A DNA stretch of 64,000 bases from a virus (taxonomy: Duplodnaviria; Caudoviricetes), in IMG/VR virus record IMGVR_UViG_3300045594_000116, positions 64,001 to 128,000 of that record; one strand, written 5' to 3'. A program made the translations under genes and the position numbers. How positions within the stretch are numbered: position 1 is the stretch's first letter; each line of letters opens with the position of its first letter. Shown here piece by piece: positions 19,901 to 53,336 of the stretch. Below the pieces are notes generated by a model. It saw nothing but the letters and a program-made list of their open reading frames with translations. It made no database searches and was not told the DNA's origin.

Positions 19901-22498
19901 CATCGTATTACTACGAGCGTTGGAGACTTTGTGTCTCATGGCGTAAAGAGTATAGGTGGTTTCTTATCTGGTGATGCCAACGCAGATACAACCAAAGCAT
20001 CCAATGTTCCTACGGAAAAGGAAGTAGCTCCAAATGGAAAGAACTACGAAACTAACGATGTTAAATATCTGACTGATAAAGGATATAGTAGAGAAGATGC
20101 TCTCAAGTTCCTCGCTACAGATCCTAAATATGCTAAGTCTGATGACACAGCACCTAATGGTACTAAATATTCTGAGAATGATATTAAGTATTTGCTGAGC
20201 AAAGGATACACTAGAGCGGATGCTCTTAAGTTCCTCGCTACAGATCCTAAATATGCTAAAGCTTCTGGTAAAGGCAAATGGGGTCGTGGTGGAATCGGAA
20301 GTTGGTTCCATCGTATTACTACAAGCATTGGTGATTTCTTTAGCGGAAAATCTAGCTCCACTCCTGCAGCTAACGTTCCAACAGAAAAGGAAGTAGCTCC
20401 AAACGGAAAGAACTACGAGACCAATGATGTCAAATATCTTTTAGATAAAGGGTATAAGAGAGAGGATGCTCTTAAGCTTCTTTCTACAGATCCTAAGTAT
20501 GCTAAGTCTGATGACACAGCACCTAATGGCAAGAAATATTCTGAGAATGATATTAAGTATTTGCTGAGCAAAGGATACACGAGAACTGATGCTCTCAACT
20601 TCCTTGCTACAGATCCTAAATATGCAAAGACGAATGCTAGCTCCACTCCTGCTCCAGCAAGTATAGCTCCAGCTAAATCTGCTACTGAGCAGGCTAGCTC
20701 TGTACTGTCAACTAAAGGAACTGTAACGCTTCCTACAGCTCCAAAGGCCGCCGCTCCTATAACGGCTCCTGCACCTAATCCGAATTCTATTGAAGGAATA
20801 AGAGCTACCATAGCCGATATTCCTATTGATCAGATTGCGGAATATAACCGTATACTTGATACTGATAGCATTGCTGTTGCTAAGGCTAAAGCTGAGAAGG
20901 CTAGATCCGAATATCAGAAAGCTACTGGTACTGGTAAATGGGGTAGAGGTAATGGAATAGATGCTATTAGGGCTTCTATCTCCGACATTCCAGAATCTAG
21001 CATTCCGTCGTATAATCGTATCAACGATGATGACGACTTATTCGTTGCTAGAGCTAAAGCCCGTAGAATCCGCGCTATGTATGGAGGAAGCAATTCTTCT
21101 ACTATGGCAGCACCTACAAGCTTAGCATCTGTTGCAGCATCGGCTCCATCGGTCGGCATTAGCAGCACTCCTGCTATGAGCTCTGGAGCTTCAGGTAATA
21201 TAGATGCAGCTAAAACTATAGCTGAGATTCGCGCATGTATCTCAGATATCCCAGAATCTAGTATTCCGTCATATAATCGTATCAGCGATGATGATGACTT
21301 ATTTGTTGCTAGAGCTAAAGCTAAGAGAATTCGTGCCATGTATGGTAGCGGCTCTGGTAAATGGGGTAGAGGTGGAATCGGTAGTTGGTTCCATCGTATT
21401 ACTACAAGCATTGGAGACTTCTTCACTGGTGGCAGTAGTAGTAAATCTACATCTGCTGCAGTGGCAGTTGAAAAAGAAGTAGCACCTAATGGTAAACATT
21501 ATGAAACCAATGATGTAAATTACCTTACTAAGAATGGGTTCACAAGAGATGCTGCAATAAAGTATCTTGCAAACGATCCTAAATATTCTTCAAAGGATCT
21601 TGCTCCTAATGGACAGGAATACTCTGAGAATGATATTAAGTATTTGCTGAGTAAAGGATACACTAGAGCGGACGCTATTAAGTTCCTCGCTACCGATCCT
21701 AAGTATGCTAAGAAGAAGGAAGAAGAGAAGAAAGCCGCAACTGCACCAGCTACGACCACTCCTATTACTAACACCACTCTTAGCACTACGAATACTTCAG
21801 TTCCTACACCTCCAAAGACTGCAGCACCTATAACTGCAGCTGCTCCAAATCCGAATTCTATTGAAGGGATTAGAGCATCTATTGCTGATATTCCGCAGGA
21901 TCAGATTGCTGATTACAATAAGATTCTTGATACTGATAGCCTTGACGTTGCTAGAGCAAAAGCAGAAAAGGCTAGATCTGAATATCAGAAAGCTACTGGT
22001 ACTGGTAAATGGGGTAGAGGTAATGGCCTTGATGCATTGCGTCAGTCCATATCTGATATTCCACAGGATCAGATTGCTGATTACAATAAGATTCTTGATA
22101 CTGATAGCCTTGATGTTGCTCATGCCAAAGCTACTCAGATAAGAGCAAACTATAGAAGATCTCTTCCATCCGCTCCGGGTAGTGTTAGCCAGTCTAACAA
22201 TATACCTCCAGCTCCTGGAACTGTAACTGCCAATGGTATGGCTCCTGGTATGCCTGATCATGGTGATAAATTCGATACGATGATTGAACTTCTTAAAGGT
22301 ATGGCTAAAACTCTTATTGTTATCGCTCAGAATGGCAATGGCGGTGGGTCTGCTCAGCAGAAGCAAATCGACGATATGAAGACGCAGCTTGGCTCCGTTG
22401 TATCTGGATTCAACCAGACTACTGGAGTTAGTGATGTATTCGGAGGAAAGGATACCTCTAGTATCATAAACTCCTTGAATGTATTAGCTACTAGATAA
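7916..22498 (+). CDS. Giant tape-measure-like tail protein / virion-associated lysin polyprotein (4860 aa)
   Basis: AAAGGAGG RBS. Long helical and Gly/Ala-rich N-terminal part with hydrophobic GxxxG segments. C39-like peptidase (YSQLD..ACGPAS..NHYI, ~16180-16700). Phage tail lysozyme (AAAGIMGNMQQES..YGLCQWT, ~16810-17230). GH73 glucosaminidase (AQMVNESGW..NYGGIK..GGYY, ~17490-17865). M23 peptidase (HGGVD..HMDS..STGPHLHYE, ~18490-18860). C-terminal repeats. Confidence 0.85.
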   Translation: MLAIVKNYMKNIPKSIAYATVDTITSKSATLHDFSERNQDLYKSTYHAIRDYRTTIDKTKKAIQSSPIYRAGDLAFNNAMEDIRTGNFYNKERENKMEEEAVGDFGLDEFGEGINLGNEEGKPEGDKSQVAPPSLGDKMVCSSIGDAAKANATAVATAVGKTGKYIADTQKSIANMQYVQNAQMMGVMQTGFGNISSGLQTIYTTTAGLLKTQADNSKTFYETTTRALNEQNAMIKEMLEMQRERYKKEQEKEKPHSNNYSDIISASGAPDLKMYGKVVLENVKKLANEKSMGIASMLDENTLKAMAANPLGGIISLGINAAMGNHLSKAMERFDKTLSGVFGNFISRMNAEAKKGDGLAGILGKIFGIKSTVKTTLDTSKYEKGNMSWNGKANKALTEVIPGYLARIESALTGKEERRYDLDSGKWKSVRAIRTEWKANQKKYVTDSTSDVREEMKKLMKGMRFKTLDKKKGFDEDLDNFFEALYNNYGEFNEHNNKANKSDYGVSSSQNFKMIREMFKKLPKNVRSQIAGNTLNARASQDTTNRAHEKAGNAAYNVVFDESNMGSINEFNEKTGELKKNLGLLSSMNLNVMKDSYKHTVFDYLRDISETLKNIRTLSERGGFGGGGGNGHGHGRNRRPRYNWDEINKNNRGPREESRTERDQDREARKRQHYLDSAKEGEFQFDDDSSMGRFNTIITANASARDAKQAEDDRTKGNFIDRALGRRARNANGDKKSLSARLAAAGSIFDKVDVIADQLADFAKKPTEMLAGVVEAADQHVYDLFFSKDSNEVDPETGERAHGMFGYMKIQLKKTFSDANKWIKEKITDKLKEKYGADSMLGVANNAFKKYTGIDVGEKMKSLKTSIVGDGQGQKGLLSPVLDGITDSLKKALVEMKEDVKSTAEEARQAAMDAMNDDVTVGQRANGGFVPRTGLYMLSKGEAVVNSEDNPYNPNKNANVNADAKREQSMMVKLRKQFPNVDIVDGNYAKGTNPFKDKYKKEQHKIRKAKFNLDRVNGLRDKYKDQLSAFMGSFMGEGKSEDSGKMNLKDAKSILRSAAKGAGNFSAETIAKAKALVDAEQSERINTRSVQFADSILGNGDFKKTRLQMDKAKSAIMKLTPKVAGGAAVGTAAGFVLGGPLVGAVLGSATAIAMNSKTVNEFLFGKVGQDGKNDNKGIFSGKTQESIKKWFPDAKKYGITGGVLGLIGPFGPLTGVMLGSAIGFAKHNDTIKNALFGETGLINKGTKQKLKKALPAMGMGAAAGNVAGLLLGGPFGLLGNSVIGAGVGMLASTDQFKDTVFGKDDGHGHRTGGLVGEFRNAVLNPFKGGVKRVVDRFGRYLSEDIVKPVTSAMAPLGKVLELSIKKMASGISSVVGGTIKKVLSPVTDAATHYFKKFFLNSWVGKKVTEGAKLIGGGLLKVASAPSWLIGKVGDKARGSLIKSGNADFMSAEQRLAFADKHGIKDYSFSGLDQSLANTDAKGAESLAEQLKLMRNNGEGLEDSLATSRANMRKDVQSNGSIDNFTYRKIEKLMEAGKYKEAIDYVQSMKNITSTEKMRIINALKSGQKEVAKKRNAAEAGRTNIQAGYEKLSKQYGLDITGDNAKKIEALARKEAEAKRKDEGNGNTVEGEAADGSGSLVTAMNTNTIETVNILTEINKNLQAFLNGTKPGNAGAASENRAAANADKTFDHGNDKINQRAASLNGALEDKMFALNQKNGSMVRANISDENIYKLADSRSRDGKKKDRMSKLNKIIDRGINLTDTINMILGLDDPEFKIITDFFDTGMNMNATELAEFIGVCHDDRIIGCVKDFIKEGIPFEHLAWMKNCDNEMRRMIIQLHKEALPNATADQLYAVSGKYGTIISNARNGMNEDEITRSIGKKRGADLKRDTKAFGNQEASDVSKRNKMNVASDAMNKAGKATNGAIDSIGNATMAPINQARGFLHTSAATQDARNSRAASERAANIDKGNNASLKEEQKMIEQANKGRAEIEKNSKEAVPVGAHAFGLANLISGGMSVLSKGEQILSPVTKVLKKGYNGYQKAKSIANKFAHPIDTAMGYGKKKWNKAYNEAKAMQAAKNGGASAGSAGGASTETVSTEFGPQTYTRTTDGSMSLANTKENKDIQDKMAHKEEMQEEIVAKLEEIADNTGNPQGGGEPQGKKSGGFLSTLLALLGGLLSMLNPLSLAKKLFSILRSVGGKLFGTILKDILPAILKRFPMLGKLLGGLFSGGGAGGLFSGIKGLGGKALGWLSDKAMIAKDVAGGTLKAMGGLALDAGGKALSWGKDKLGGILGGAGRGLSKLGGKIGGIFGGGSSSGGGFLGKLKGKAGSLLGAAKGIGGKALGMAPGLAKGAAGLMVGGGMIDGIKSLTCTALDWVKSQIFGGDSGDGSSDGNESNGGGGGLFNTAMDYGGKAVDWARDKAGKAAGWVGDKASGLWNGAKSVAGKAAGWVGDKASAIKNAGSKAVDWGLSHIEGAKGAALKGWQGIKGVASSAMDAGSSFMSKAADAGSGVIEAVKNRVSGLLKTIGNYAAKMIPKNIAGKLSTVLDKIMEKVTNPQNAAKLAEKIGIKQGFTAAEAGAGPETLGVGTLVVGAAEIGFWFTKGYNNASEDFDLKDGVEPTTGMKFASGLAEAVTGATPIGYVLDGKDVIDIVQDIMGSDIGASNKDVNSANQSNDGAQQQMSGGNDSNGGDGGDDDNKSWFDKAKDFAANAASSAKNAVVGAYDWAKDKVSGIASVIKNRFGSGKWGRGAGDFYSQLDPSVAGMRFNAPGDTVTQTIGDSACGPASMLNMASALGKGKWGRSKWGRGASDLVAAAKDALPFKEKDGGVHPDYFRKEGEKLGIHTENIGVSNMDAAVDAGKPVILMGRDSNNNGTGNTPGVYGPYNHYITVTGKDKKGNYITQDPEGNPNQSVSKNYLKAHSSLAIAGSTGRGKWGRAKAMIASAARRAKLGFGRSKWGRGTDNAETIWNLLTTQYGLSNQAAAGIMGNMQQESGFDPHAVQDGGSADEPPDSCLNAADGSNAYGLCQWTGSRLRAMNDFAKSQGKSAGDIEVQLAFMKQEAGDTWNTISNAGTAEEAATIWAREFERCGIDGSRVAYATDIFAKQGKGITNKSTPSGNQNGNSSGGNQKDYSGLYGKIAKIQDALSSAFDFGEKKPDNKNGNKPGGLNVTGDVKYAVLKDLSKFINGGDPKIAAGAQVAMKTSQLTGLPADLIFAQMVNESGWFKSAVAEADHNYGGIKAYGDAKRGSAADDGEYYRHFDSDEEYAQYYATTLKKYEEDGIGQADTPEKFAHALKAGGYYAGDETDYANTMRGILNGGGGKWGRGRRSLPIGTTAKYGRGFFSSIADFINNRKPAAADDSEQGSEYTDTKPNPNGDSGGDDSSSSSDDSSSSDDSSKDKDGKDKDKKKDDKNKKPDSNSEDIGDGGMLDKIGTTAETMAKSLHDTIAPIIKSIGGLATKIFGSNITKIFGKTNPFEKQFSSGSESSNKDGDNKSGNKDSKGKQLPGVKVAGNPVEMLTSNLHAPVTSDYGATDGRPDAGAHGGVDIGAEQGTPVPSTVSGTATWVPPAGSGGGGYGNAVQVKDSKGNFHMFAHMDSQAVSQGQTVAKGDILGYVGSTGISTGPHLHYEIDPPENENAVKRGEHIDPNSYSVEGLGKWGLGARPKHSGYADVDSKHPMSKKIMQISDAASILSHKQVHEAAKSAGLAASGKWGRGIGSWLKRVGGSVRDFAVHSVRSIGGFLSGDANDDTAKTDVPTEKEVAPNGKNYETNDVKYLTDKGYTREDALKFLATDPKYAGKAGDDIAPNGTKYSENDIKYLLSKGYTRADALKFLATDPKYAKAAGKGKWGRGGIGSWFHRITTSVGDFVSHGVKSIGGFLSGDAKADTTKTDVPTEKEVAPNGKNYETNDVKYLTDKGYSREDALKFLATDPKYAGKAGDDTAPNGTKYSENDIKYLLSKGYTRADALKFLATDPKYAKASGKGKWGRGGIGSWFHRITTSVGDFVSHGVKSIGGFLSGDANADTTKASNVPTEKEVAPNGKNYETNDVKYLTDKGYSREDALKFLATDPKYAKSDDTAPNGTKYSENDIKYLLSKGYTRADALKFLATDPKYAKASGKGKWGRGGIGSWFHRITTSIGDFFSGKSSSTPAANVPTEKEVAPNGKNYETNDVKYLLDKGYKREDALKLLSTDPKYAKSDDTAPNGKKYSENDIKYLLSKGYTRTDALNFLATDPKYAKTNASSTPAPASIAPAKSATEQASSVLSTKGTVTLPTAPKAAAPITAPAPNPNSIEGIRATIADIPIDQIAEYNRILDTDSIAVAKAKAEKARSEYQKATGTGKWGRGNGIDAIRASISDIPESSIPSYNRINDDDDLFVARAKARRIRAMYGGSNSSTMAAPTSLASVAASAPSVGISSTPAMSSGASGNIDAAKTIAEIRACISDIPESSIPSYNRISDDDDLFVARAKAKRIRAMYGSGSGKWGRGGIGSWFHRITTSIGDFFTGGSSSKSTSAAVAVEKEVAPNGKHYETNDVNYLTKNGFTRDAAIKYLANDPKYSSKDLAPNGQEYSENDIKYLLSKGYTRADAIKFLATDPKYAKKKEEEKKAATAPATTTPITNTTLSTTNTSVPTPPKTAAPITAAAPNPNSIEGIRASIADIPQDQIADYNKILDTDSLDVARAKAEKARSEYQKATGTGKWGRGNGLDALRQSISDIPQDQIADYNKILDTDSLDVAHAKATQIRANYRRSLPSAPGSVSQSNNIPPAPGTVTANGMAPGMPDHGDKFDTMIELLKGMAKTLIVIAQNGNGGGSAQQKQIDDMKTQLGSVVSGFNQTTGVSDVFGGKDTSSIINSLNVLATR
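19045..22150 (+). repeat. Intragenic repeat array: 10 copies of APNG..Y..ND..YL..KGY.R.DAL..L..DPKY and 5 copies of IRA.I.DIP...I..YN.I.D.D.L.VA.AKA
   Basis: Near-identical ~400-bp DNA units at ~19045-20630; repeats visible in the translation. Confidence 0.95.
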
Positions 22499-28207: not shown

Positions 28208-29464
28208 TTATCGATTCGTTGCAAGGAGATTGATAATCTTCTTGTAGTTTCCGCTCTCTTCACGTTCCAGATGAGCATAAGACATAACTTCATACTGACC
28301 AGAACCATCATCAAAGAGGAAGCTTACTTTCTCAAGCACTTCATCGACAACAACGAATGCCATCACATTATATGCATCCATGATAGGAAGGATATTGCTA
28401 CCTTTCAAAACACGAATACGCTCTTCTTTTTCAAGAGTATCTGCAGTATCTTTAGAGATAAGCAGAGTGGTGATAGCGGATGCATCATTCATCATGCCGG
28501 TGAACCGTTTAATACGACTCTTGATGGCACGACGCTCAAGCAACTTCCAAACACGGTCAGAAGAACCACGCCCAGATGTAGAGAGAGCATCAAGCTTAGC
28601 CCGATCAATAGCAAAGACAAAATCTTTCCAGAAAGAAATTTCACGGGTAGAAGCACGCAGGAAATTGAACAGACCATTGCGATCCTTGTTTTTGATAACA
28701 AGACGATTGATCATATCCTGGCGAGATACATACTGCAGCTTAGCCTTTACGCCAACTACAGCCGTCTGAGGAACACACGCACCATCGACATTTGCATAGA
28801 ATTTGATAGTAATGAGTGTCGGAACAAGTTCATTTGCTTTCTTTACGTCAGTTGCAATCTGCTGCTTAGCAACAAAATCCTGCTCTGCCGCAAACTGGTC
28901 ATCTTCATTGGAACGAGCTTCAGTGATAGGAACACCATAAGAATTCTGGTTTACACCAAAACGAGAAAGTGAAGGATTCATAACTCCTTCATTCATATGG
29001 TAGTCAATGTTTTTCATATCTTCCATTACAGCTTTAAACTGAGATGGATCAGTGATCTCGATACCCGTAACAGAACTAGACTCATTAGAAATCTTGTCCA
29101 TGATACCGATGAACTCGTTTACATCGAGCTCGTCATCAAGCTCAATATTCTTATGAAGCTGACCGATATACTCGATAGCATTACGGCTATCTGAGATATT
29201 GATTGCTGAGAAGAGCATCTGTAACATTACAACTGCTTTTCTCTCTATAGCTTTGCAGCACATTCTTGCAGCATCCACCGTCACACTTTCTTCCGCAATG
29301 ACAGGGAAGACAAGAGTAAGATTAGATGCACCCTTTGCGATGCTTCTATATGACGTATTGGTGAAGATACCCTTTAACGGTTCAGTTTCTGAATTAATTC
29401 CGCTAATTACATCCACGATGTCACGAAGAACAGTCTCATGGATCTGTCTAGGATTTTTATTCAT
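28208..29464 (-). CDS. Putative virion structural protein
   Basis: AAGGAGG RBS, 418 aa; late motif GACA tatcag TAA at 29486-29498. Confidence 0.65.
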   Translation of the reverse strand: MNKNPRQIHETVLRDIVDVISGINSETEPLKGIFTNTSYRSIAKGASNLTLVFPVIAEESVTVDAARMCCKAIERKAVVMLQMLFSAINISDSRNAIEYIGQLHKNIELDDELDVNEFIGIMDKISNESSSVTGIEITDPSQFKAVMEDMKNIDYHMNEGVMNPSLSRFGVNQNSYGVPITEARSNEDDQFAAEQDFVAKQQIATDVKKANELVPTLITIKFYANVDGACVPQTAVVGVKAKLQYVSRQDMINRLVIKNKDRNGLFNFLRASTREISFWKDFVFAIDRAKLDALSTSGRGSSDRVWKLLERRAIKSRIKRFTGMMNDASAITTLLISKDTADTLEKEERIRVLKGSNILPIMDAYNVMAFVVVDEVLEKVSFLFDDGSGQYEVMSYAHLEREESGNYKKIINLLATNR

Positions 29465-36078: not shown

Positions 36079-37344
36079 ATGGCTTCAATATTTAGCGCAC
36101 AATCCTTCCTCAAAGAGTCTTCTATTTACTCTATTCAGTTAGATGATAAGGGAACTTATAGAGAGGAATCTTTCTTCATGGAAGGTTTGGATTTCCTTAC
36201 TGAAATGCAGAAAGAGAATGTAAGATATAGAGCTGATCTGTATCGCGCAGTTGCTGAGTCTGGTACCAATATGGTAGCAGTTCATGAAGCATTTACTGAT
36301 TTCTTTGGGCATATCAAGGATTTCATTAAGAAGGTAATCAACTTCTTTAAGAAGCTGCTTGCAAAGTTCTGGGTACGTATAAACAGCATGTTCCTTCGTG
36401 ATAAGTATATTACGAAGCACAAAGACGAACTTAAGAAGTTCGAGTCGAAACATGAGTTCGACTTCAATGGATTTGAATATACGTTTAGCGATAACATTCC
36501 ATCGCTGTCTGTAATTGAATCAGTTAAAAATGCTGTTACTACACTTGCAGATGAAGCAACTGAAGAAGGAAAATGTAAGACGTTCAAGAGCAAGAAAGAC
36601 CTTGAGACTGCTTACAAAACCTTTACGACCGAGAAATGCGAATCTTCATATCTTGACAAGCAGCGCGGATCGATTCTTGGCAATAAGCGTGGCATCAGTG
36701 AAACGGAGTATAAGGATGAACTCTTTAAAGTCTTCAGAAACAATGAGGACAAGAAGGGTAAGATTACTGCCAATGCTACACTGGTAAACAAATGCCTGTA
36801 TGATTTCGAGAAATACTCAGAGATCAAAAAGAAGACAGAGCATCAGCGTGATGAAGTGGAAAAGGCATACAATCTTATCGAAAAGGGTTTTGATCGGATT
36901 CATAATGCGGTATTCGGCAAATCTGGCAAGGAAGTCGATGTCCTGGATATCGTAGATACTGCTGATGAAGATCGTACCCAGCTAATTGACATGTTCGCAA
37001 AAGAGAAGGCTGTAGAAGTACAGGAGATTTCCAATCTTCATGTAATGGCTTTCACTGCTAAACTTGATGCACTTAGAGATAAGTATGCTCAGGATAAGGC
37101 TGTAATGTATGCGGCATTCAAGAAGATTCTTGCGAAAGAGAAGATGTTCGCTAAAGAATCTGCTGAACTCGATGAAGTTCTTGAGCATAACGATATCGAT
37201 GCTATCATTGATACTCATGTCCGTGATGCAGTTCCAAGCGAGGACGATTCTGATAAGAAAGAACCTTGGTCTAACACTGATAAAGATACGTCCGTAGCAG
37301 ATGCTACAGACAGCGGCAATAATGGAGGTGAGTGCTGTGCGTAA
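36079..37344 (+). CDS. Internal head protein-like, paralog 3
   Basis: VHE|AFTDFFGHIKDFIKKVINFFKKLL. Confidence 0.7.
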   Translation: MASIFSAQSFLKESSIYSIQLDDKGTYREESFFMEGLDFLTEMQKENVRYRADLYRAVAESGTNMVAVHEAFTDFFGHIKDFIKKVINFFKKLLAKFWVRINSMFLRDKYITKHKDELKKFESKHEFDFNGFEYTFSDNIPSLSVIESVKNAVTTLADEATEEGKCKTFKSKKDLETAYKTFTTEKCESSYLDKQRGSILGNKRGISETEYKDELFKVFRNNEDKKGKITANATLVNKCLYDFEKYSEIKKKTEHQRDEVEKAYNLIEKGFDRIHNAVFGKSGKEVDVLDIVDTADEDRTQLIDMFAKEKAVEVQEISNLHVMAFTAKLDALRDKYAQDKAVMYAAFKKILAKEKMFAKESAELDEVLEHNDIDAIIDTHVRDAVPSEDDSDKKEPWSNTDKDTSVADATDSGNNGGECCA

Positions 37345-38779
37345 CGAATATTTGGAAGATACTAGATATGCTCAGTATCTTATTGAAATGACGGCTGAAG
37401 AGGAAAAGCTGAAAGGCTTTACTGAAGCTCTTATCGGTGTACATGAAGGTGCAAGCATCGATAGCCTTATGGCTATTCGTGAAGGCGTTAGCGATAAGAT
37501 CAATGGTGTATGGGAGAAGTTTAAAGGATTCCTTGAGAGAATCTGGGCTAAGTTCATGAACTATGCCAACAAAGCTATCCTGAATCAGGTTGAGTATCTT
37601 GAGCAGTATAAAGATATCATTCTCAATCGTAAGCCTAACGACTTTGCTTTTGAAATGACCGATTATCCTGCTGGTATTCAGCGGATGGGCTCTGTAACCA
37701 TTCCGGTCTTTAAGACGGTTATCGACAAAGTCACTACAGAACCAACTGATACGAGTTTCATGCACACCATCATTGGTGAGTACGATGATAAGACCCCATG
37801 GCCTACGTTCTGTGCTCAGTTCTTTGAAGGTGGTACTGTTCAGAAACCTGCAAATCTGCAGAATATGAATATGACCGATCTTTACAATTACTGCCATGAC
37901 TTCAAGTCTAGAATCCTTTCCAATATCGAGAAGGATCAGAAGACTTTGCAGGGAACGCTCGACAGTATCAGAGGCGATATCACTTCTGCTAGTCAGGCCG
38001 CAGCAAAGCCGGCAGCAACGGCTCCAGAAGCTAAGAAGCCTGAAGATACCGGGAATTCAGCCCCTACGAATAATACCCAGCCTACATCTCAGAATTCAAG
38101 TTTTATTGACGATACGTATAAGCATTTCTTTACTGAAGATATGACTATCGGAAAGCCGGATGACAATAAGGACAATGGAACTGCAAAAGCTCCTACGTCT
38201 ACTCAGACCGCTGGAAATTCCACGGTTACGAATCAGTCATCTACGAAACTTGGCTCTACTACAGGAACCAATACTGGTGTAAGCTCCTTGAAGACTACGA
38301 CAGACGCTAAGGGTGCAGATACCAGCGCTCAGGTAGATACCAAGGGACAGGATTCTGAACAGCTTAAAACCCTTGAAGAGAAATTGAAGAACTATGATAC
38401 AGTTGCTGCAGGCGTACTTACTGGTAAACTGCAGGCTGCACAGAATATCTTCAATGACTATATGAAGCTGATCAAAATCCATATCCAGCAGCAGACTGGT
38501 AAGGGTGGTACTAACCAGGCAGCAGCCAATGGTACTAACACTAATCAGGCTCTTGATCTTTCTGGACTTGGTGATCTGGCTGACTTCGCGGTAGATGCAG
38601 GTAAGATTGTTAAGAATGATCCTCCATATAACGATGCTCAGAAGAAAGCTGAAACTATCAAGCAGTATATCGATAAAGTTAAGAATAACAATCCTAACTT
38701 TACTGGTAACTTCAATGATATCATGAAAGCAGCATCTTCGCAGATTGCAGCTCAACAGAAAAAAACTGAGGGTAAATAA
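37337..38779 (+). CDS. Internal head protein-like, paralog 4
   Basis: GGAGG RBS then GTG at 37337; IRE|GVSDKINGVWEKFKGFLERIWAKF. Confidence 0.7.
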   Translation: MRNEYLEDTRYAQYLIEMTAEEEKLKGFTEALIGVHEGASIDSLMAIREGVSDKINGVWEKFKGFLERIWAKFMNYANKAILNQVEYLEQYKDIILNRKPNDFAFEMTDYPAGIQRMGSVTIPVFKTVIDKVTTEPTDTSFMHTIIGEYDDKTPWPTFCAQFFEGGTVQKPANLQNMNMTDLYNYCHDFKSRILSNIEKDQKTLQGTLDSIRGDITSASQAAAKPAATAPEAKKPEDTGNSAPTNNTQPTSQNSSFIDDTYKHFFTEDMTIGKPDDNKDNGTAKAPTSTQTAGNSTVTNQSSTKLGSTTGTNTGVSSLKTTTDAKGADTSAQVDTKGQDSEQLKTLEEKLKNYDTVAAGVLTGKLQAAQNIFNDYMKLIKIHIQQQTGKGGTNQAAANGTNTNQALDLSGLGDLADFAVDAGKIVKNDPPYNDAQKKAETIKQYIDKVKNNNPNFTGNFNDIMKAASSQIAAQQKKTEGK

Positions 38780-45579: not shown

Positions 45580-47433
45580 TTACTTGATTCCGATTATTCT
45601 TTTAAAAAGATCGATAGTGTAAAGTAACGTACTTCTACGAATCTTTACTCTATCATCAGAGAATGGACTATCCTGATATTCCTTAAGCATATCAAAGTTT
45701 CTATCATATTTCTGTACGATAGCCATATACTTTGTAATATCATTGATAATCTTTGCCCTAGCTTTATGATAATCCTGTATCTTCTTTTTACTACGTTCCT
45801 GATGGATTTTCTCCTCAAGAATCGTATTCAGATACCAAAGTTTGCAAAGGCAATATTTCATTCCTTCTACGTTCTTTGCTTTCTCATATTGTTTAAGAGC
45901 AAGATGTGTTGTAGAATACTCAGCTTCAAAGTCTACATCGAGACCCTTATCTATAAGAAGGTTTCCATCATCATCAAACTGAATAGGCCATTCTTTTGCT
46001 TCCATAATGCATGAGAATGAATCTATCAATGTATTCTCTGTTTTAGGAGCATTAGACTTGGAAAGCGAATCGATATAGCTCAATACCTTTGCCGCCGAAT
46101 ACTTCTTAGGTGATCCATAGAATACCTTATAGATGAATGCCGAATACTTCTTTTTCTTTACTGCTCTATTCAAACTTCCAGGAGATACCATATTAGAACC
46201 AATCTTAGTGATATCTACATCTGCAAGCTTGAGCATGCTATCCACAAACTGAGAGCATACCATCTTTACGTTATCAACGTAATTGATATTGAGCGGTATA
46301 GTAATCAGATTGATAAGAGAGTAGTCAGCATGTGATTCTTTCAGCTTTTCTATCTTCTGCTTAAGCTTATTGTATCTTTCCTTAGATACAAATACTGCAT
46401 ATACTTGAATAGCTTTATCAGATGTGCGTTCTTTCAACGATTGTGCCTGAAACCCACCAGGGAAAGAGAAACTATACAAAGTTTTCATAGATGCATCAAA
46501 TGATAATGCTGAATGTGAGTATACTGACTTAGTAGCTATTCTAGTCAATTTATTGAAAAATGTCTCAGAATTGAAGAAAACTACGTATAGTGGGTACACA
46601 TCAAGGGAAGTCTCTGTAAACGCGTTTTTCGCATTTTTGACACTCTCAGATACATCCAAAATGGTGTAATTAGAAACTGATTCTGAGATGATCTTGCTAA
46701 CTCTTTTGCTGGCAAAGCGTTTAGTAGATTCATTATATTGTATTTCTGGATTCCATCCTAGATCAAGTATAGATTGCTTAACAGCATCTACATCTTTCTT
46801 ATCAGAAGTCTTAGAAAGTTTCATATACAGTTTCTTTAAAGTATTATCCCAATCGGTGTATCTGGACATGGTAGATCCAAATCCATTCAGCCTATTGCAA
46901 TAATGCTTATACCATTCCGCTGCATCCAAGTCAGTTTTGAATGCCTCTTTAGAGTACATAGGATTTTCACTCAAGTATGACACTCCAAGGTGCTCCATTT
47001 CGTTAGATGTGAAGTAAGGAGTGCCGAGAAATCTTACAGAATTATCGGCATCGACCCTATCAACTATATCTTCTGTAGCACATTCAGAAAGATACTTACT
47101 ACGAATATCAATAGGTTTCATAAGAGCTGCCGACTCAAGAGCCGGGCTGTATCTCTTATCAAACAAACTATCATTGATATCGTTCTTTAAGAATTCATGC
47201 GCCATTTTCTCATAGCGAGTTCTGTTATCAAAGTTAAATAACTCTATCGATTTCCAGTCAGATTCATGCTGAAAATCTATAGGCATTTCTTGATATGAAT
47301 TGAAGTCCTGCTTAAGCGATTTAAAATCTGGATACTTACTATACAGAAGAATCTTATTGTTACCAATACGCCATTTCTTAACTTCTCTATCGCCAAGCTC
47401 TACATGCTTGATTTCTTCATCAATGTTTAACAT
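45580..47433 (-). CDS. Virion-type protein containing a permuted papain-like (NlpC/P60, YiiX/YaeF-like) domain
   Basis: YSHSALSFD (~46510) precedes Y.L..MVCSQFV..SPG.L (~46250), the His-before-Cys order of permuted NlpC/P60; start MLNIDEE at 47433 after GGTGG. Confidence 0.65.
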   Translation of the reverse strand: MLNIDEEIKHVELGDREVKKWRIGNNKILLYSKYPDFKSLKQDFNSYQEMPIDFQHESDWKSIELFNFDNRTRYEKMAHEFLKNDINDSLFDKRYSPALESAALMKPIDIRSKYLSECATEDIVDRVDADNSVRFLGTPYFTSNEMEHLGVSYLSENPMYSKEAFKTDLDAAEWYKHYCNRLNGFGSTMSRYTDWDNTLKKLYMKLSKTSDKKDVDAVKQSILDLGWNPEIQYNESTKRFASKRVSKIISESVSNYTILDVSESVKNAKNAFTETSLDVYPLYVVFFNSETFFNKLTRIATKSVYSHSALSFDASMKTLYSFSFPGGFQAQSLKERTSDKAIQVYAVFVSKERYNKLKQKIEKLKESHADYSLINLITIPLNINYVDNVKMVCSQFVDSMLKLADVDITKIGSNMVSPGSLNRAVKKKKYSAFIYKVFYGSPKKYSAAKVLSYIDSLSKSNAPKTENTLIDSFSCIMEAKEWPIQFDDDGNLLIDKGLDVDFEAEYSTTHLALKQYEKAKNVEGMKYCLCKLWYLNTILEEKIHQERSKKKIQDYHKARAKIINDITKYMAIVQKYDRNFDMLKEYQDSPFSDDRVKIRRSTLLYTIDLFKRIIGIK

Positions 47434-50400
47434 TTTTCTTAGCCACCACCTTAGCTGGAATATCTTTGATCCTCTGGTAATATGCTGTACGCATTCCAGT
47501 CTTTGCGTTCTTAGCATAGACACCATACTGATTCTCCATCACTACGACATCTTTCAATCCTTCAGTGATAGCATCTGCTTCTTTAATCATATGAGGATTA
47601 GTAAGAGGGAATTCATGATCTTTCTTACCCTTAATAGACTTAAGCTGCTCAGCTACAGTCTGTAGATATGAGGTAGCTTCAGATCCAATATCAATTGGAG
47701 ATACCTCTGTACATGATTCATCACAAAGAATCTGATCATCTGATAACAGCTTCTTTCCAGTAAGGGCTTCATATATGAATCCTCTAGGTTGAACAGTTCC
47801 TATAGCATTTTCGATAATACGTAATCCTTCTGGATCAGATCTGAATTGGAATACACGAAGCTTTCTTCCTTTTAAGAACTCCTCCGTATTCTCTTTCTTC
47901 ACCATACCAGATTTGTCTTGCGTAAGAATATTCTTAGTCAGGATATCATTGGAGACTGCATATCCTTCTACATTCATATCCATGATTCCAGTACCAGTAT
48001 CACGATGTACTGGTCCGTACTGGGTTACATATGATAAGTCAGGTGCAGGTGTCATCCCACCAGGGCCTGCAAACTCATTCAAGTCCATATCTGCTCCTTC
48101 CCGAATAGCATCCCGATGATTGAAGTAGAAGTCAATTGCCTCTTCATGCTCCGCTCTCCAATCAATGGTATCTACTCCAACATATTTTGCTTTCTGATAG
48201 AAATCGTCTTTGTCGACGTCCTCTATATGACCAGTAAACTTCTTAGCGTATTCTGCTACGAATATGAATGTAAGACTGCCTTCGTATTTCAATCCCAGTG
48301 GCCAAAGTTTCTTCTTTTGCCATTCAGGATATTTTCCTTCATAATTCTGGAAGTAAGTCATTCCAGTATATGATCTATTCTTAGTTACGACTAAGGCCTC
48401 TTCATTGCATTCAGCCTCAGCTTGCTCATCTAATGCTCTGCCTTTATCTAATCCACCACCAGGAAGTTTATAGTTGGTTCCATACTTGTTAAGATTCTTA
48501 GGATCTTGCATTTCTACAAGTACATCCCCATGCTTATCGAATATAAGAGTTTCTACTCTTACACGATACTGCTTGTTGTCATACATGATATAAGGATTAT
48601 CTATACCTTCAGCAGACTTAATATATTTGATATCTTTCGGCTTAGGAATAGGAACTAAATTTGCTTCCATTGCGATAGAATCTCTGTAGGTATTCATAGG
48701 TGGAACAGGCATAGGAATAAGTTCCATCCACTCTGTATCCATATTATATGCAACTAAGAATATCTTCTCTATCTCATCCTCTCCAAAGAGAATCAGATAA
48801 GATAACCAAAGATCTTTAGCCATCTGAATATGCATAATACCAGAGTAGGTAAAGAGTTTATCTCTCATAGTATCTACTAACCCATTACCGGTAGCCATAG
48901 ATTGAATATAGTTACAAAGCTGATTAGCATTGTATCTCTTATCTGCATCAGTATCTTTAGGATTGAAGATGATAAGGAACTCATATTCCTTTCCAGCTTT
49001 TTCATAGAAAGAAGCAGTAGCCTTGCCGATGATACTAAAGAATTTCTCGCTAGGATCGAACCATTCTTTGAATCTATCCTTTCCAGCACATGCCAGATTA
49101 GCAAGAAGAATCTCAGCCCCTTCAGACTTTGGAGAGATAAAGTAGTTTATACGTTCTTTATGTTCTACTCCTACAGATTCTATCAATGATTCATAGTTAG
49201 GATCTGTGCTATGATATTCTCCTTCATAAGTAGATACTGATTCCTGCATACCAACGTTATCTATAACGATGGTTCCAGTGTCATATATGTGATTCATATA
49301 TTTAACGGTTGTAAGACCAAATTTTCTAGATGGTTTATACTTCATAAGAAGATTTGGCATCTTTTCTTCATTAAGTTTACTTACGTATACAGCTATCATA
49401 TCTTGCTCATTGTCAAAACAATGAACTCCTTTAAAGCTATACCATGAAGATTCTACCACGTAAACTTTATTACCTTTCATACATGCTACCCATGTATGTG
49501 TAGGATTAACTCCATCATCACTATTGAATTGATGATAGTATAATGAATATTTACCATTGCTTAAATCTGCAGTGGTATTTTTATATCCCATTTTCTCTAG
49601 ATACTTAGCTTCATAGTCTGCATAATCCCAGCATATACCATATCCAAGCTTTTCAAATTCAGCCGGAGACTTAGTTTTATAATCTTTAAAGTAGTCATCC
49701 CTCTCTTCATAAGAGAAGTTTGCCTCTAAATTATTATATAACCTTACCAATTCCTTAGGACCTTTGGCAGGTTTTGCGTTTTCTAATACCATATTATTAT
49801 CACCTCTATAATTATAATATATAGGTGAAAGGTTAGTTGACTCTCCTTCATAAGTAGATACCGAGTCATCGAGTTCTCCAGATTCCATCATAGAATCATT
49901 CGTCCTATTAAACCAATCTGATGCAGCATATATCAACTTAGCTTTTATAGACTTTGGAAGGTGCGTTAGCTTTTCCTTCAAGTTGTCGTACATATCGTTA
50001 TGCATCTCAGGATTTGGAGAATCGTATTTGCAAATAAGAGATGGCATATACTTAGATTTGAACATCATATCATCTCTAAATATCTTTTTATCTCCATAGA
50101 ATTTATCATAGATTGGATACTCCTTGGTATCCTGGATAGCTGCAAAATATTTAATATCACATAAATCATTGTCGCTAGCTTTTCCTATGATATTCTTTAC
50201 ACTCATAACATGCTTCTTCATCATCTTAAGTTGTTCATTTCTTACATCTTCAGGCTTAGAGTATGGGCCCTTCATTCCATAAGAACGTTTCCCTTGATAA
50301 TTAAAAACATAGTACAATCCATCTTTTTCTTTATAGATGCACATAAAGTGCTGGAACATATGATACTCTTTATCTCCATACTTACGGAAGTATTTGGAAG

Positions 50401-52828
50401 TCCTAAGGATATAGTTTTCGATATGTTTACGTTCGCAGAAGAAATGCATGAGCAAAGCAAAGTCGATACACGTTCCAAGCTTCGTTCTCAATATATCATC
50501 AGGCCAATAGAAATGTATTCCTTTGCTACGGTCTTTAGCATTAAACTCTTTAGGCCAATCACACTGATTCACCTTAACCCAATTAAGAACGTCGGTTGGA
50601 GATTGCATGTCCTTACAGAAGGCATCGAAGCTAGTATACTTCTTTTTGTATCTATCAATACCAGATTCATTGATGGTAGACTCTCCAAATATTCCTTTTA
50701 TAGATTTGAGTATGCTGCTCAACTTGATTTTATCTAGTTTAGAAAGAACCTCATCGAGCCACGTAATCTTATCAGTATGGCATTCTTTATTCACCTTAGC
50801 AAACATATCCCAAATTTCAGGTATACGTTTAACTATCTCTGCTTGGGTGGCATACCTATCATTATAATAATCATCATATACATTCAGATTTTCTTTTTGT
50901 ATACGAGAAAACACCTTTTTAGCATGATACTTTCCAGGCATCAGTTTTAAGAAAAGAGAAGTGATGTAGAAATAATACTTTTTATATGCCGCTTCTGCTT
51001 CTTCGTATGAGCCAAATGGTCCCTGGAGTGAACCTTCATTGTTAGCACGATAATTAAAGATATAGACTCCAGAATCTTTTATTTTGTATAGGCATACTAT
51101 ATGACCTAAATACTTAGTATCTTTATCATTAGTCGCTATAGTTCCTATATACAGCATTCTATTTTCTATGCTATTACGATTACAAAGCAGACGCATAAAG
51201 ATGGCATGATCGAAGCAAATTCCAGCATGATTTTTGATTATTTCATCAGGCCAAGCTACGATAACATCATCTTCATTCGTACTATGAATGGCTAATCTTC
51301 TTTTTACCCTCTCATCTTGCGTAAACCATCTGATATTATTTACGTTATACCAGTCATTCAATTCACTAGGAGTTTTGATAGATTTACATAAATCATTAAA
51401 CCCAGAATACCTTTTGGTAAACTTACTACCTACAGTTTCATCAATAAGATTCTCTTCAAACATATCATCTCTCATACGATTTGTAATAGAGATATAGTTC
51501 CTATACCCATTTACTATCTTAGGAATTCTTTTCATTGCTAAACTTGGCGTTCCATAGTCTCTTTTGATTCTACGGATTATAGACGTAGTTAATGAAGTTC
51601 CCTTGATGACAAAAGCAGCATTGTTAAGTAATGGAGAATGATATTCATACATATCCAGTATAAAAGCTCCCTCTATTACAAATCTTTCATTAGAGCCTAT
51701 AATAAACTTGATATAGTCTTCCATAAGCTTTTTACGAAAGATCTTATCATACTTTACCTTTTTAGCAATATTAGTATTTACTTTAGTATCACCGTACCAA
51801 TCTTCCATTCTCCATGGAATTTTATCTGCTGGAATACTATCAGCATCGGTTAGCCACCAGAGTATTTTATCAGTATCTATATGATGAGCATCATATTCAT
51901 CTGACAATTCTTCCGATAACGTGGATTTACCACTTCCAGATAATCCCACCATATAAAGTACAGAAAGTTCTTTATTTTTCCACGCATCCAAATTCAATAC
52001 TAAGTCTTTTTCTGAAAAGATGATAGGAGTGCCTTCTTGCAGCATATTTACTTCTTCATTGACATTGATGATGACCTTCTTATTCTCTTCACTATCATCA
52101 ATCATCTGAGCTTTCAATTCTGCTACGATACCAAGCAGCTGGCTGAAATCGTTATCAGTCAATCTAAGGTAGTTGAATTTACCCATATTGGTAATCATCT
52201 GCTCTTTGGCTAACTGCTTTTCTCTATAAGAAACCATCTCTCTGTTATTAGGATTGCTGCCTCCATCCTTAACTTCAATCACAAGATTGAATGGGATAAG
52301 AAGGATATCGGTAATCCATTTAAGTTTCTTTCCTTTGTAGATATATTCTATCGTAGGCCCAGGAGAGAGAATATCAGTGCTTTTGAATCCCATCACTTTA
52401 TCCATGAATTCAAGAGCCTTCTCTTCGTATTTACCAGTAAATACATGATATCCACCATCAGTGAATTTATACTTACCAGATATACGTCTGTTAGCCAGCA
52501 TCTTTTCTTGCTGCTCTGGGTCATCAAGAAGAGTAGTCTTACCATGTACTCTAAGCATATTCTTCTTATAAGCATCTCGCAAAGCTTTCTGGCACTGTGG
52601 TCTACCACAGAGCCGATCATATTTGCAAGCTGTTTCATTCCATTTCGTTGGTCTCTTGCATACAACGCAAGTACCATGATCTTTATGATTGATAGTGTTG
52701 AATACTATCTGATTCGCTGTCATACCTTTTGGAATGCATTCCTCATGCTCTTCCTCAATATGAGATCCTAAGTTTTCTCTAGTAGCTCTATAGCTGCAAA
52801 AGGGACACTTATACGTTTTCGTACTCAT
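47420..52828 (-). CDS. 1802-aa multi-enzyme protein: Zn finger, PD-(D/E)XK-like, P-loop kinase, three transglutaminase-like domains, Nudix hydrolase
   Basis: CPFC..H...H; TDILL..VIEVKDG; GLSGSGKST; GICFDHA/GHIVC, GTCIDFA/QHFMC, GICWDYA/THTWV; LPGGGLDKG..AEAECNEEA (Nudix box variant). GGGAGG RBS; late motif GACA tactag TAA at 52852-52864. Confidence 0.75.
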   Translation of the reverse strand: MSTKTYKCPFCSYRATRENLGSHIEEEHEECIPKGMTANQIVFNTINHKDHGTCVVCKRPTKWNETACKYDRLCGRPQCQKALRDAYKKNMLRVHGKTTLLDDPEQQEKMLANRRISGKYKFTDGGYHVFTGKYEEKALEFMDKVMGFKSTDILSPGPTIEYIYKGKKLKWITDILLIPFNLVIEVKDGGSNPNNREMVSYREKQLAKEQMITNMGKFNYLRLTDNDFSQLLGIVAELKAQMIDDSEENKKVIINVNEEVNMLQEGTPIIFSEKDLVLNLDAWKNKELSVLYMVGLSGSGKSTLSEELSDEYDAHHIDTDKILWWLTDADSIPADKIPWRMEDWYGDTKVNTNIAKKVKYDKIFRKKLMEDYIKFIIGSNERFVIEGAFILDMYEYHSPLLNNAAFVIKGTSLTTSIIRRIKRDYGTPSLAMKRIPKIVNGYRNYISITNRMRDDMFEENLIDETVGSKFTKRYSGFNDLCKSIKTPSELNDWYNVNNIRWFTQDERVKRRLAIHSTNEDDVIVAWPDEIIKNHAGICFDHAIFMRLLCNRNSIENRMLYIGTIATNDKDTKYLGHIVCLYKIKDSGVYIFNYRANNEGSLQGPFGSYEEAEAAYKKYYFYITSLFLKLMPGKYHAKKVFSRIQKENLNVYDDYYNDRYATQAEIVKRIPEIWDMFAKVNKECHTDKITWLDEVLSKLDKIKLSSILKSIKGIFGESTINESGIDRYKKKYTSFDAFCKDMQSPTDVLNWVKVNQCDWPKEFNAKDRSKGIHFYWPDDILRTKLGTCIDFALLMHFFCERKHIENYILRTSKYFRKYGDKEYHMFQHFMCIYKEKDGLYYVFNYQGKRSYGMKGPYSKPEDVRNEQLKMMKKHVMSVKNIIGKASDNDLCDIKYFAAIQDTKEYPIYDKFYGDKKIFRDDMMFKSKYMPSLICKYDSPNPEMHNDMYDNLKEKLTHLPKSIKAKLIYAASDWFNRTNDSMMESGELDDSVSTYEGESTNLSPIYYNYRGDNNMVLENAKPAKGPKELVRLYNNLEANFSYEERDDYFKDYKTKSPAEFEKLGYGICWDYADYEAKYLEKMGYKNTTADLSNGKYSLYYHQFNSDDGVNPTHTWVACMKGNKVYVVESSWYSFKGVHCFDNEQDMIAVYVSKLNEEKMPNLLMKYKPSRKFGLTTVKYMNHIYDTGTIVIDNVGMQESVSTYEGEYHSTDPNYESLIESVGVEHKERINYFISPKSEGAEILLANLACAGKDRFKEWFDPSEKFFSIIGKATASFYEKAGKEYEFLIIFNPKDTDADKRYNANQLCNYIQSMATGNGLVDTMRDKLFTYSGIMHIQMAKDLWLSYLILFGEDEIEKIFLVAYNMDTEWMELIPMPVPPMNTYRDSIAMEANLVPIPKPKDIKYIKSAEGIDNPYIMYDNKQYRVRVETLIFDKHGDVLVEMQDPKNLNKYGTNYKLPGGGLDKGRALDEQAEAECNEEALVVTKNRSYTGMTYFQNYEGKYPEWQKKKLWPLGLKYEGSLTFIFVAEYAKKFTGHIEDVDKDDFYQKAKYVGVDTIDWRAEHEEAIDFYFNHRDAIREGADMDLNEFAGPGGMTPAPDLSYVTQYGPVHRDTGTGIMDMNVEGYAVSNDILTKNILTQDKSGMVKKENTEEFLKGRKLRVFQFRSDPEGLRIIENAIGTVQPRGFIYEALTGKKLLSDDQILCDESCTEVSPIDIGSEATSYLQTVAEQLKSIKGKKDHEFPLTNPHMIKEADAITEGLKDVVVMENQYGVYAKNAKTGMRTAYYQRIKDIPAKVVAKKNVKH
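49218..49861. repeat. 20-bp direct repeats (TCTCCTTCATAAGTAGATAC) at 49218-49237 and 49842-49861 flanking the third transglutaminase-like module
   Basis: Exact match 624 bp apart (208 codons); encodes VSTYEGE twice. Confidence 0.9.
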
Positions 52829-52958
52829 TGTTGGAATCCTCCCTTGTAAGTTTACTAGTATGTCAGATAGGCCTAATTTGACATATCCAGTAATATAAAT
52901 TATTTTTGCGTATAAATTAACTACTCAAACTTTATTAGTAATAAATGGAGGTAATCAT

Positions 52959-53336
52959 ATGGCTATAACTACTGTTACTAAGATAACAGAGCATACTCTT
53001 AGTATCAACGAATTTAACAAGCCAAAGGTACTAACTAATGAAGCAGCTATCGCTCAAAAGCTGATAGAAATCGCTTTGCTAAATCCAGGAACATATCCTA
53101 CTAGACCTGACATGGGTTTAGGCTTGGTAAGAAACTATCGTTATCAATCTGACACTGACGTCGAAAAGATGAAAGAAGAATATAAGAGTCAGATAGAGAC
53201 ATATCTCCCAACGTTAACTGACGTTGAGATCGATATAAAAGTAGTTGGCAAAGAGCTTAGATTCTTTGTCAAGATAGATGGGACAATGTTCCGTCTTATC
53301 TTAAATACAGACACAAAAACATTGATGTCATTATAA
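52959..53336 (+). CDS. Baseplate wedge gp25/GpW-like protein
   Basis: AIAQKL..LL.NPGTYPTRPDMGLGL..Y motif; 125 aa. Confidence 0.75.
   Translation: MAITTVTKITEHTLSINEFNKPKVLTNEAAIAQKLIEIALLNPGTYPTRPDMGLGLVRNYRYQSDTDVEKMKEEYKSQIETYLPTLTDVEIDIKVVGKELRFFVKIDGTMFRLILNTDTKTLMSL

Follow-up and report, generated by a model that had tools for sequence, protein, structure and literature searches.

The closest known concepts for the gene described here are the polyvalent proteins of phages and the internal proteins of phage T4. The gene occupies positions 47420-52828 (minus strand) of a 64,000-nt stretch of phage DNA (positions 64,001 to 128,000 of the IMG/VR virus record IMGVR_UViG_3300045594_000116, Duplodnaviria, Caudoviricetes; hereafter the window). 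It encodes P0001, a protein of 1802 amino acids (aa) in which unrelated enzyme types follow one another within one chain. Polyvalent proteins (Iyer et al. 2017, PMC5512222) similarly combine many unrelated conflict-type domains per chain (nuclease, kinase, peptidase-fold, Nudix, GNAT); they are phage-encoded, are predicted to travel with the DNA and vary in domain content between relatives. Their processing has been proposed to rely on built-in zincin-like metallopeptidases, whereas no metallopeptidase family is detectable in P0001 (Pfam and PHROG scans at E<=0.1), which instead carries a site of the prohead-protease type at each joint. Unlike polyvalent proteins, P0001 also presents its cassettes on a defined two-domain chassis. 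Neither 'Jumbo' nor 'phiKZ' nor 'transglutaminase' appears in the polyvalent-protein paper (PMC5512222).

The T4 internal proteins IPI-III and Alt (PMC9026906) share with P0001 a protease of the gp21 family, the rule of hydrophobic-x-Glu followed by a small residue, and presumed ejection with the DNA; the 6-12-residue N-terminal peptides of P0001 relatives end in the same motif. T4 cargo, however, consists of single proteins that lose one short propeptide, whereas up to nine sites in the P0001 chain would free six or more enzymes, and the capsid-targeting sequence (CTS) of T4 internal proteins has no counterpart at the N-terminus of P0001. The phages phiKZ, 201phi2-1 and SPN3US (gp175/gp245 proteases; PMC10052503, PMC5694885) resemble the present case in being jumbo phages with a virion RNA polymerase and many head-internal proteins, and in cleaving after Glu with Ser favoured at P1'. 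The phiKZ and SPN3US proteases favour S/A at P3, whereas the joints of P0001 have I/L/M/F at this position, as in T4. No enzyme polyprotein has been described for these phages, and a Pfam scan found no phiKZ_IP (PF12699) match in P0001. Our literature search returned no publication in which a jumbo phage, a polyprotein and a prohead protease come together.

The N-terminal 245 residues of P0001 are orthologous to AR9 g233, PBS1 gp124 and phiR1-37 g237 (phrog_15137, 'endonuclease fused to N-terminal Zn finger domain'), with which the protein has in common the neighbourhood of a baseplate wedge gene, lateness and the catalytic D..E-x-K. These proteins stop before the linker, whereas P0001 runs 1550 residues further. 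Judging from sequence comparisons, we put the probability at roughly 60% that P0001 is a cargo-carrying version of this conserved late protein of AR9/PBS1-like jumbo phages, and that its chain is packaged, diced and ejected. Its capsid would probably be stocked in this way with exchangeable enzymes that are cut apart from one another.

Enzyme cassettes between two constant parts

A first-pass annotation of the window had described a string of unrelated enzymes separated by hydrophobic-x-Glu sites at this position. The open reading frame (ORF) is real, and all of the domains listed there were recovered by profile searches, alignments and AlphaFold2 (AF2) modelling of the C-terminal half. Eight domains are distinguished within the chain (Pfam, PHROG, AF2). 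From the N-terminus to the C-terminus, with a slash for the candidate cleavage point, the features are as follows.

47420..52828, minus strand: polyprotein gene (P0001), 1802 aa; ORF whose C-terminus coincides with the C-termini of homologs
52094..52828, minus strand: zinc finger (C2H2 and Cys4 zinc sites) and PD-(D/E)XK nuclease, residues 1-245, the constant N-terminal part (phrog_15137)
52034..52093, minus strand: linker KKVIINVNE-EVNMLQE/G, residues 246-265, missing from stand-alone orthologs, with E258 invariant in the family
51437..52033, minus strand: P-loop kinase cassette, residues 266-464, ending LIDE/T (Pfam AAA_33 and PHROG kinase)
50681..51436, minus strand: transglutaminase-like domain 1 (DUF553), residues 465-716, ending IFGE/S (profile and alignment)
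50666..50680, minus strand: 5-residue spacer STINE/S flanked by two sites, residues 717-721 (sequence inspection)
49883..50665, minus strand: transglutaminase-like domain 2 (DUF553), residues 722-982, ending SMME/S, a paralog of domain 1 at 28% identity
49241..49882, minus strand: transglutaminase-core domain 3, residues 983-1196, ending GMQE/S (Pfam Transglut_core, 3.7e-07; homologs P0185/P0186)
49842..49867, no strand assigned: direct repeat copy 2, upstream flank of domain 3 (repeat search, family D1)
49218..49243, no strand assigned: direct repeat copy 1, 26 nt, encoding SVSTYEGE, downstream flank of domain 3 (repeat search, family D1)
49178..49240, minus strand: spacer SVSTYEGEYHSTDPNYESLIE/S, residues 1197-1217, inside region 1190-1234
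48665..49177, minus strand: unassigned domain, residues 1218-1388, ending IAME/A, with 31-34% identity in P0004-P0014
48098..48664, minus strand: Nudix hydrolase domain, residues 1389-1577, ending AIRE/G (Pfam NUDIX, 1e-3, weak, and fold match)
47423..48097, minus strand: constant C-terminal region, residues 1578-1802 (alignments and AF2)

Approximately 1330 residues of unrelated enzyme cassettes thus occupy the linker between the two constant parts of P0001. The guanine-cytosine content of the middle cassettes (0.33-0.35) is lower than that of the ends (0.38-0.40).

The N-terminal domain matches the phrog_15137 'endonuclease' profile with E=2.5e-43, residues 4-231 aligning to profile positions 2-227 of 236. 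Seven of its residues (C8, H23, H28, C54, C79, D174 and K187) are invariant in 52 long relatives and three more (C11, C57 and C74) are nearly so; E185 is invariant in a 7-sequence alignment of the nuclease domain, and the catalytic D...E-x-K is retained. The match of the kinase cassette to AAA_33 (1e-05) falls slightly short of the Pfam cut-off. All three transglutaminase-like domains are Cys-His domains and carry the catalytic Cys motif G-x-C-x-D-x-A. The third is bracketed by the 26-nt direct repeats, which are 92% identical, spaced by 624 nt and in frame. Residues 1190-1234 form the sole long stretch of P0001 that no distant homolog covers. The domain at residues 1218-1388 has no match in Pfam, PHROG or the ESM Atlas. 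The AF2 model of the Nudix domain has a predicted local distance difference test score (pLDDT) of ~80 and matches phage Nudix hydrolases in BFVD, down to E=1e-8. The C-terminal region opens with a conserved, predicted-disordered lead (LNE/FAGPGG..YVTQYGP..VEGYAVSND), followed by an alpha/beta domain; speculatively, the pattern E-x-x-G-P-G-G...Q-Y-G-P...V-E-G-Y-A-V-S-N-D of the lead would suit a binding peptide. We assign no fold to the C-terminal domain, since its model (pLDDT 70.6) has no convincing match in the PDB (best Foldseek E=0.75, best VIA Z=3.9); an ESM Atlas search with the domain returned noise-level matches only.

Cassette exchange and the motif at the joints

Gain and loss of cassettes among close relatives fall exactly at the linkers. 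One relative, P0002 (locus L002), differs from P0001, at 99% identity, by the absence of the kinase cassette alone (residues 266-461). At the DNA level the indel is exact: 588 nt between ...CTGCAAGAA (encoding LQE) and ATTGATGAA (encoding IDE), with flanks that are 97-99% identical. The same locus has an extra 213-aa ORF (L002 5282-5923, minus strand) between the gp25-like and polyprotein genes, which is missing from this window. In P0003, which is 96% identical, a GNAT domain is present and two transglutaminase-like cassettes are gone. Among more distant relatives the cassettes include M23 peptidase, GNAT and additional kinases, besides other domains. The entire neighbourhood is syntenic in another four viral contigs, where the gene is flanked by the wedge gene on one side and by the gene for the 617-aa downstream protein on the other. 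These syntenic orthologs start with the nuclease and end with the C-terminal domain, and vary in the middle; they measure 1879 aa or, with a single GNAT between the ends, 733-762 aa, and the gene is split in one contig. Domain content is therefore not fixed among orthologs, as the first-pass annotation had anticipated. A search for related loci from P0179 found nothing.

The family is large: with the nuclease domain as query, an exhaustive HMMER search yielded 959 clusters at 50% identity. For a census of extensions we used 147 library representatives among the best 150 listed, nearly all of which carry extensions. The C-terminal domain is present in 57 of the 147. It follows the nuclease directly in ~35 of these 57, giving a core of ~465-490 aa; other representatives have 70-880 residues between nuclease and C-terminal domain, 380-820 after it, or 90-780 in front. 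Since the core lies at the protein end behind 240-780 residues in P0053, P0092, P0101, P0102, P0141 and P0159, cassettes can also be added in front. Cassette types among the 52 long members include GNAT (17), P-loop kinases/ATPases, M23, HAD, transglutaminase-like and Nudix domains. The ancestral unit is the zinc-finger PD-(D/E)XK nuclease, often directly joined by the C-terminal domain in uncultured relatives. The idea of a scaffold gene that gathers swappable modules holds insofar as cassettes swap at linkers, but there is no scaffold in the assembly sense: the carrier is a two-domain protein (nuclease and C-terminal domain, ~470 aa at its smallest) that receives cassettes.

At every linker of P0001, hydrophobic-x-Glu stands ahead of Ser, Thr, Gly or Ala. 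All eight junction strings proposed in the first-pass annotation (LQE/G, IDE/T, INE/S, MME/S, MQE/S, LIE/S, AME/A and IRE/G) are present, with the P1 Glu at residues 265, 464, 721, 982, 1196, 1217, 1388 and 1577, and a ninth, FGE/S, is found at 716. The overall number of motifs is unremarkable: [LIVMFA]-x-E-[STGA] occurs at 14 sites in P0001 versus 8.8+/-2.9 in shuffled sequences (P=0.06). Their placement is not. Junction zones were set without reference to the motif, from the ends of BLAST high-scoring segment pairs (HSPs) against distant relatives, which gave seven zones covering 285 of the 1802 residues (15.8%). Nine of the 14 sites fall inside the zones (binomial P=5.8e-5, or P=6e-4 with random placement on Glu residues), and each zone holds at least one site (P=5.5e-5). 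The expectation that such sites concentrate at junctions rather than in domain interiors is thus borne out. The five interior sites include one in the conserved kinase motif FVIEG and three in helices of the C-terminal model. A family-wide test that took ragged BLAST HSP ends as boundaries yielded only ~2-fold enrichment and is too noisy to carry much weight.

The rule is also kept where the sequence around it changes. One domain start is preceded variously by LIDE/T, SITE/A, SFHE/A or TINE/S: the sequence differs while the rule persists. Double sites that would free spacers of 5-6 residues recur in relatives (e.g. INE/STILE/S) and are represented here by FGE/STINE/S. After the nuclease domain, 140 of 148 extended representatives display hydrophobic-x-hydrophobic-(N/H)-E. 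The linker Glu E258 is invariant in the 52 long members, just four of which have transglutaminase-like domains. The residue that follows the linker Glu (P1') is Ser in 41% of cases versus a background of 5.9%, and small in 59% versus 20%. Stand-alone orthologs end just short of the linker, which is therefore no part of the nuclease fold seen in cultured phages.

Prohead protease, late expression and gene neighbourhood

The source record of this uncultured phage spans 229.5 kb, with an estimated completeness of 91%. The nearest relatives of its RNA polymerase beta-prime-like subunit are found in the group of jumbo phages AR9/PBS1, Staphylococcus S6/DC4, Listeria LPJP1 and phiR1-37. A protease of the gp21 family is encoded at genome positions 141993-142841. 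Its match to PF03420 (Peptidase_S77; positions 142074-142511) reaches 37.4 bits, the cut-off being 27; the protease is 27% identical to that of DC4 (tblastn) and has four hydrophobic-x-Glu sites in its own C-terminal part. The major capsid protein gene lies at genome positions 128481-130463 (plus strand), ~480 nt past the window end, and its product is 22% identical to the DC4 capsid precursor. A propeptide of 112 residues ending in IMTE/A is predicted for it; this site aligns with ILME/S of the Staphylococcus phage DC4 precursor, immediately ahead of the conserved mature part, and an upstream pair, GIDE/G and SINE/S, is aligned with the DC4 precursor as well. The published specificity is L/I-X-E for T4 gp21 and S/A-X-E for phiKZ, while SPN3US has A-X-E and Ser at P1' (PMC9026906, PMC10052503); by its residues, the predicted joint rule of P0001 is of the T4-like type. 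Among relatives with a short N-terminal extension, 20 of 45 begin with a T4-CTS-like peptide ending in hydrophobic-x-E/S or /A (P~3e-9). These targeting-like peptides are mostly 5-12 residues in length (few are longer), for example MIINE/S, MEILME/A and MCTIINE/S.

A DNA-level search of the P0001 gene against 50,697 phage records returned no match, and protein-level matches to cultured phages are limited to the N-terminal domain. There it corresponds to stand-alone orthologs of ~236-243 aa: AR9 g233, PBS1 gp124, phiR1-37 g237 and counterparts in BpSp and DC4/S6; in tblastn searches the nuclease domain is 31-40% identical to AR9, PBS1, S6 and phiR1-37. A hidden Markov model of the C-terminal domain found nothing near the short orthologs in AR9, phiR1-37, BpSp and DC4. 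At each locus examined (AR9, BpSp, DC4) the short ortholog is divergent from a gp25-like wedge gene. The same arrangement is found here, with the gp25-like baseplate wedge gene at 52959-53336, and thus the P0001 gene is the positional ortholog of AR9 g233-type genes. Phage phiR1-37 g237 is annotated as 'phage structural protein' in AJ972879.2, and its virion status is taken from this GenBank annotation. For AR9 g233, a late gene, an AACA-N6-TA promoter has been mapped, and transcript levels of the gene climb from 0.47 units at 5 min to 1092 units at 40 min (PMC5312081).

The start of the P0001 gene is preceded by two signals.

52838..52845, minus strand: ribosome-binding site AAGGGAGG, strong (sequence inspection)
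52853..52864, minus strand: late-promoter-like motif GACATACTAGTA (RACA-N6-TA), by comparison with the AR9 late consensus

The predicted transcription start is the A at 52853, 25 nt ahead of the ATG. The AR9 late promoter consensus is AACA-N6-TA/G (PMC5312081), from which GACATACTAGTA differs by one change: the exact AR9 form AACA-N6-TA was not found upstream of the P0001 gene, and a GACA variant stands there instead. With G or A allowed at the first position, the motif RACA-N6-TA is AR9 late-like and precedes 33 genes of this phage, with ~10x enrichment in the region -70..-10. The 20-nt leader of the P0001 gene recurs identically before a virion structural gene (28208-29464). These observations agree with the late-type promoter that had been noted ahead of the gene. 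A second promoter-like motif, TATATTAT, is AR9 early-like and precedes 23 genes, with ~10x upstream enrichment genome-wide.

Virion structural PHROGs are found among the neighbours of the polyprotein gene, as are weak phiKZ_IP-like proteins. Two of the latter (36079-37344 and 37301-38779, plus strand) have motif clusters near their N-termini, e.g. GFTE/ALIGVHE/GASIDSLMAIRE/G, and in this they resemble the multi-site propeptides of phiKZ and SPN3US. The gene immediately downstream of P0001 (45580-47433, minus strand) encodes 617 aa. It shares 14 nt with the end of the polyprotein gene, and synteny is kept in every relative examined. Its product has six hydrophobic-x-E/small sites, including ISE/S, VSE/S, FTE/T and IME/A, and no match among cultured phages; it may be a second carrier. 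Elsewhere in the window, a 4860-aa ORF occupies 7916-22498 (plus strand).

Alternatives and significance

If P0001 is diced cargo, it would be produced late and would join prohead assembly via its constant parts. A prohead protease of the T4 gp21 type would then cut after each linker Glu, leaving single enzymes and small spacer peptides. Ejected with the DNA, the freed enzymes would target nucleic acids, nucleotides or proteins of the host as infection begins. Several observations weigh against such a course of events. The P0001 gene adjoins baseplate genes rather than head genes, and the short ortholog is not listed in the virion proteomes of BpSp and DC4, which are shallow (23 and 15 proteins). 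P0001 itself starts with MSTKTYKCPFC and has no T4-like targeting peptide at its N-terminus. The documented cleavages of other proteins by the SPN3US prohead protease all remove N-terminal propeptides (PMC10052503), and so we found no experimental precedent for the freeing of several retained enzymes from one chain. Because five motif sites lie within domains, the motif alone cannot decide where the chain is cut. The strictly kept I-x-I-N-E that follows the nuclease might form a structural strand between domains and not a cut site.

Of the other explanations, the most serious, though in our judgement unlikely, is that P0001 is a polyvalent virion or ejection protein that stays uncleaved, its hydrophobic-x-Glu-Ser strings reflecting a favoured composition of flexible linkers or the short-homology footprint of cassette recombination. 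Phages commonly encode polyvalent proteins, with 2-15 domains, and for several of these transfer at full length is described (PMC5512222); the chain is reported to stay whole in the N4 virion RNA polymerase and ArdC-type proteins. The chance-level motif total in P0001 and the direct DNA repeat at one cassette border fit this explanation too. It accounts less readily for a motif that is held at the protein level while linker DNA and neighbouring residues diverge (LQE/G, IDE/T, SITE/A, SFHE/A, INE/S), for the invariance of the linker Glu across 52 distant members, for the 7-fold enrichment of Ser at P1' and for the recurrence of double sites. The same motif, moreover, terminates the short N-terminal peptides of relatives and marks the propeptide boundary of the capsid protein.

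The proximity of the baseplate genes would fit an enzyme carrier that is itself associated with the tail or baseplate, seated in the baseplate or tail tip like virion cell-wall hydrolases, and that never meets the prohead protease. The divergent adjacency to a gp25-like wedge gene in the relatives examined and the M23 peptidase cassettes of some homologs speak for this option. We consider it improbable, as the cassettes are mostly of cytoplasm-acting types (kinase, Nudix, GNAT, HAD, nuclease), the T4-CTS-like peptides of relatives point to the head, and the motif agrees with the head protease rule. Slightly less probable still is processing independent of the prohead protease, by the transglutaminase-like (papain-fold) domains of P0001 itself or by a putative papain-like domain of the 45580-47433 product; it could take place in the cytoplasm or after ejection. 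Three Cys-His domains with a catalytic Cys motif are at hand in the chain, and built-in peptidases are the proposed processing route of polyvalent proteins (PMC5512222). The case is weakened because a transglutaminase-like domain is present in just 4 of the 52 long members and the linker Glu in all; P0015 and P0017 have no such domains, yet show the same junction motifs. We also know of no transglutaminase-like enzyme that cleaves after Glu with a hydrophobic P3, which we count against self-processing.

Returning to packaging and dicing by the prohead protease, the reading that we prefer, P0001 contributes a clear chassis, a near-isogenic cassette indel and a family census. If the joints are cut sites, the role of prohead proteases exceeds propeptide trimming and resembles that of RNA-virus polyprotein proteases, and a single gene lets the phage load a changeable enzyme set into its capsid. 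Whether the arrangement amounts to a general plug-in cargo system common to AR9/PBS1-like jumbo phages, most of them uncultured, with a nuclease chassis, cassettes bounded by protease sites, co-assembly with the prohead, dicing and injection, seems to us evenly balanced. The chassis would be a two-domain virion nuclease, and recombination at linkers would place cassettes in front of, between or behind its domains. Such a system would be a natural, evolving phage counterpart of the engineered T4 'expression-packaging-processing' system, and the first prohead protease to act as a polyprotein processor that frees several retained enzymes. About a thousand natural cases would show which enzymes (GNAT, kinases, Nudix, HAD, M23, cysteine enzymes) repay injection, and a defined chassis, together with a rule for linkers, would become available for the packaging of foreign proteins in phage heads. 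For the phages themselves, cassette exchange would explain how jumbo phages renew the takeover or anti-defence tools of the first minutes of infection.

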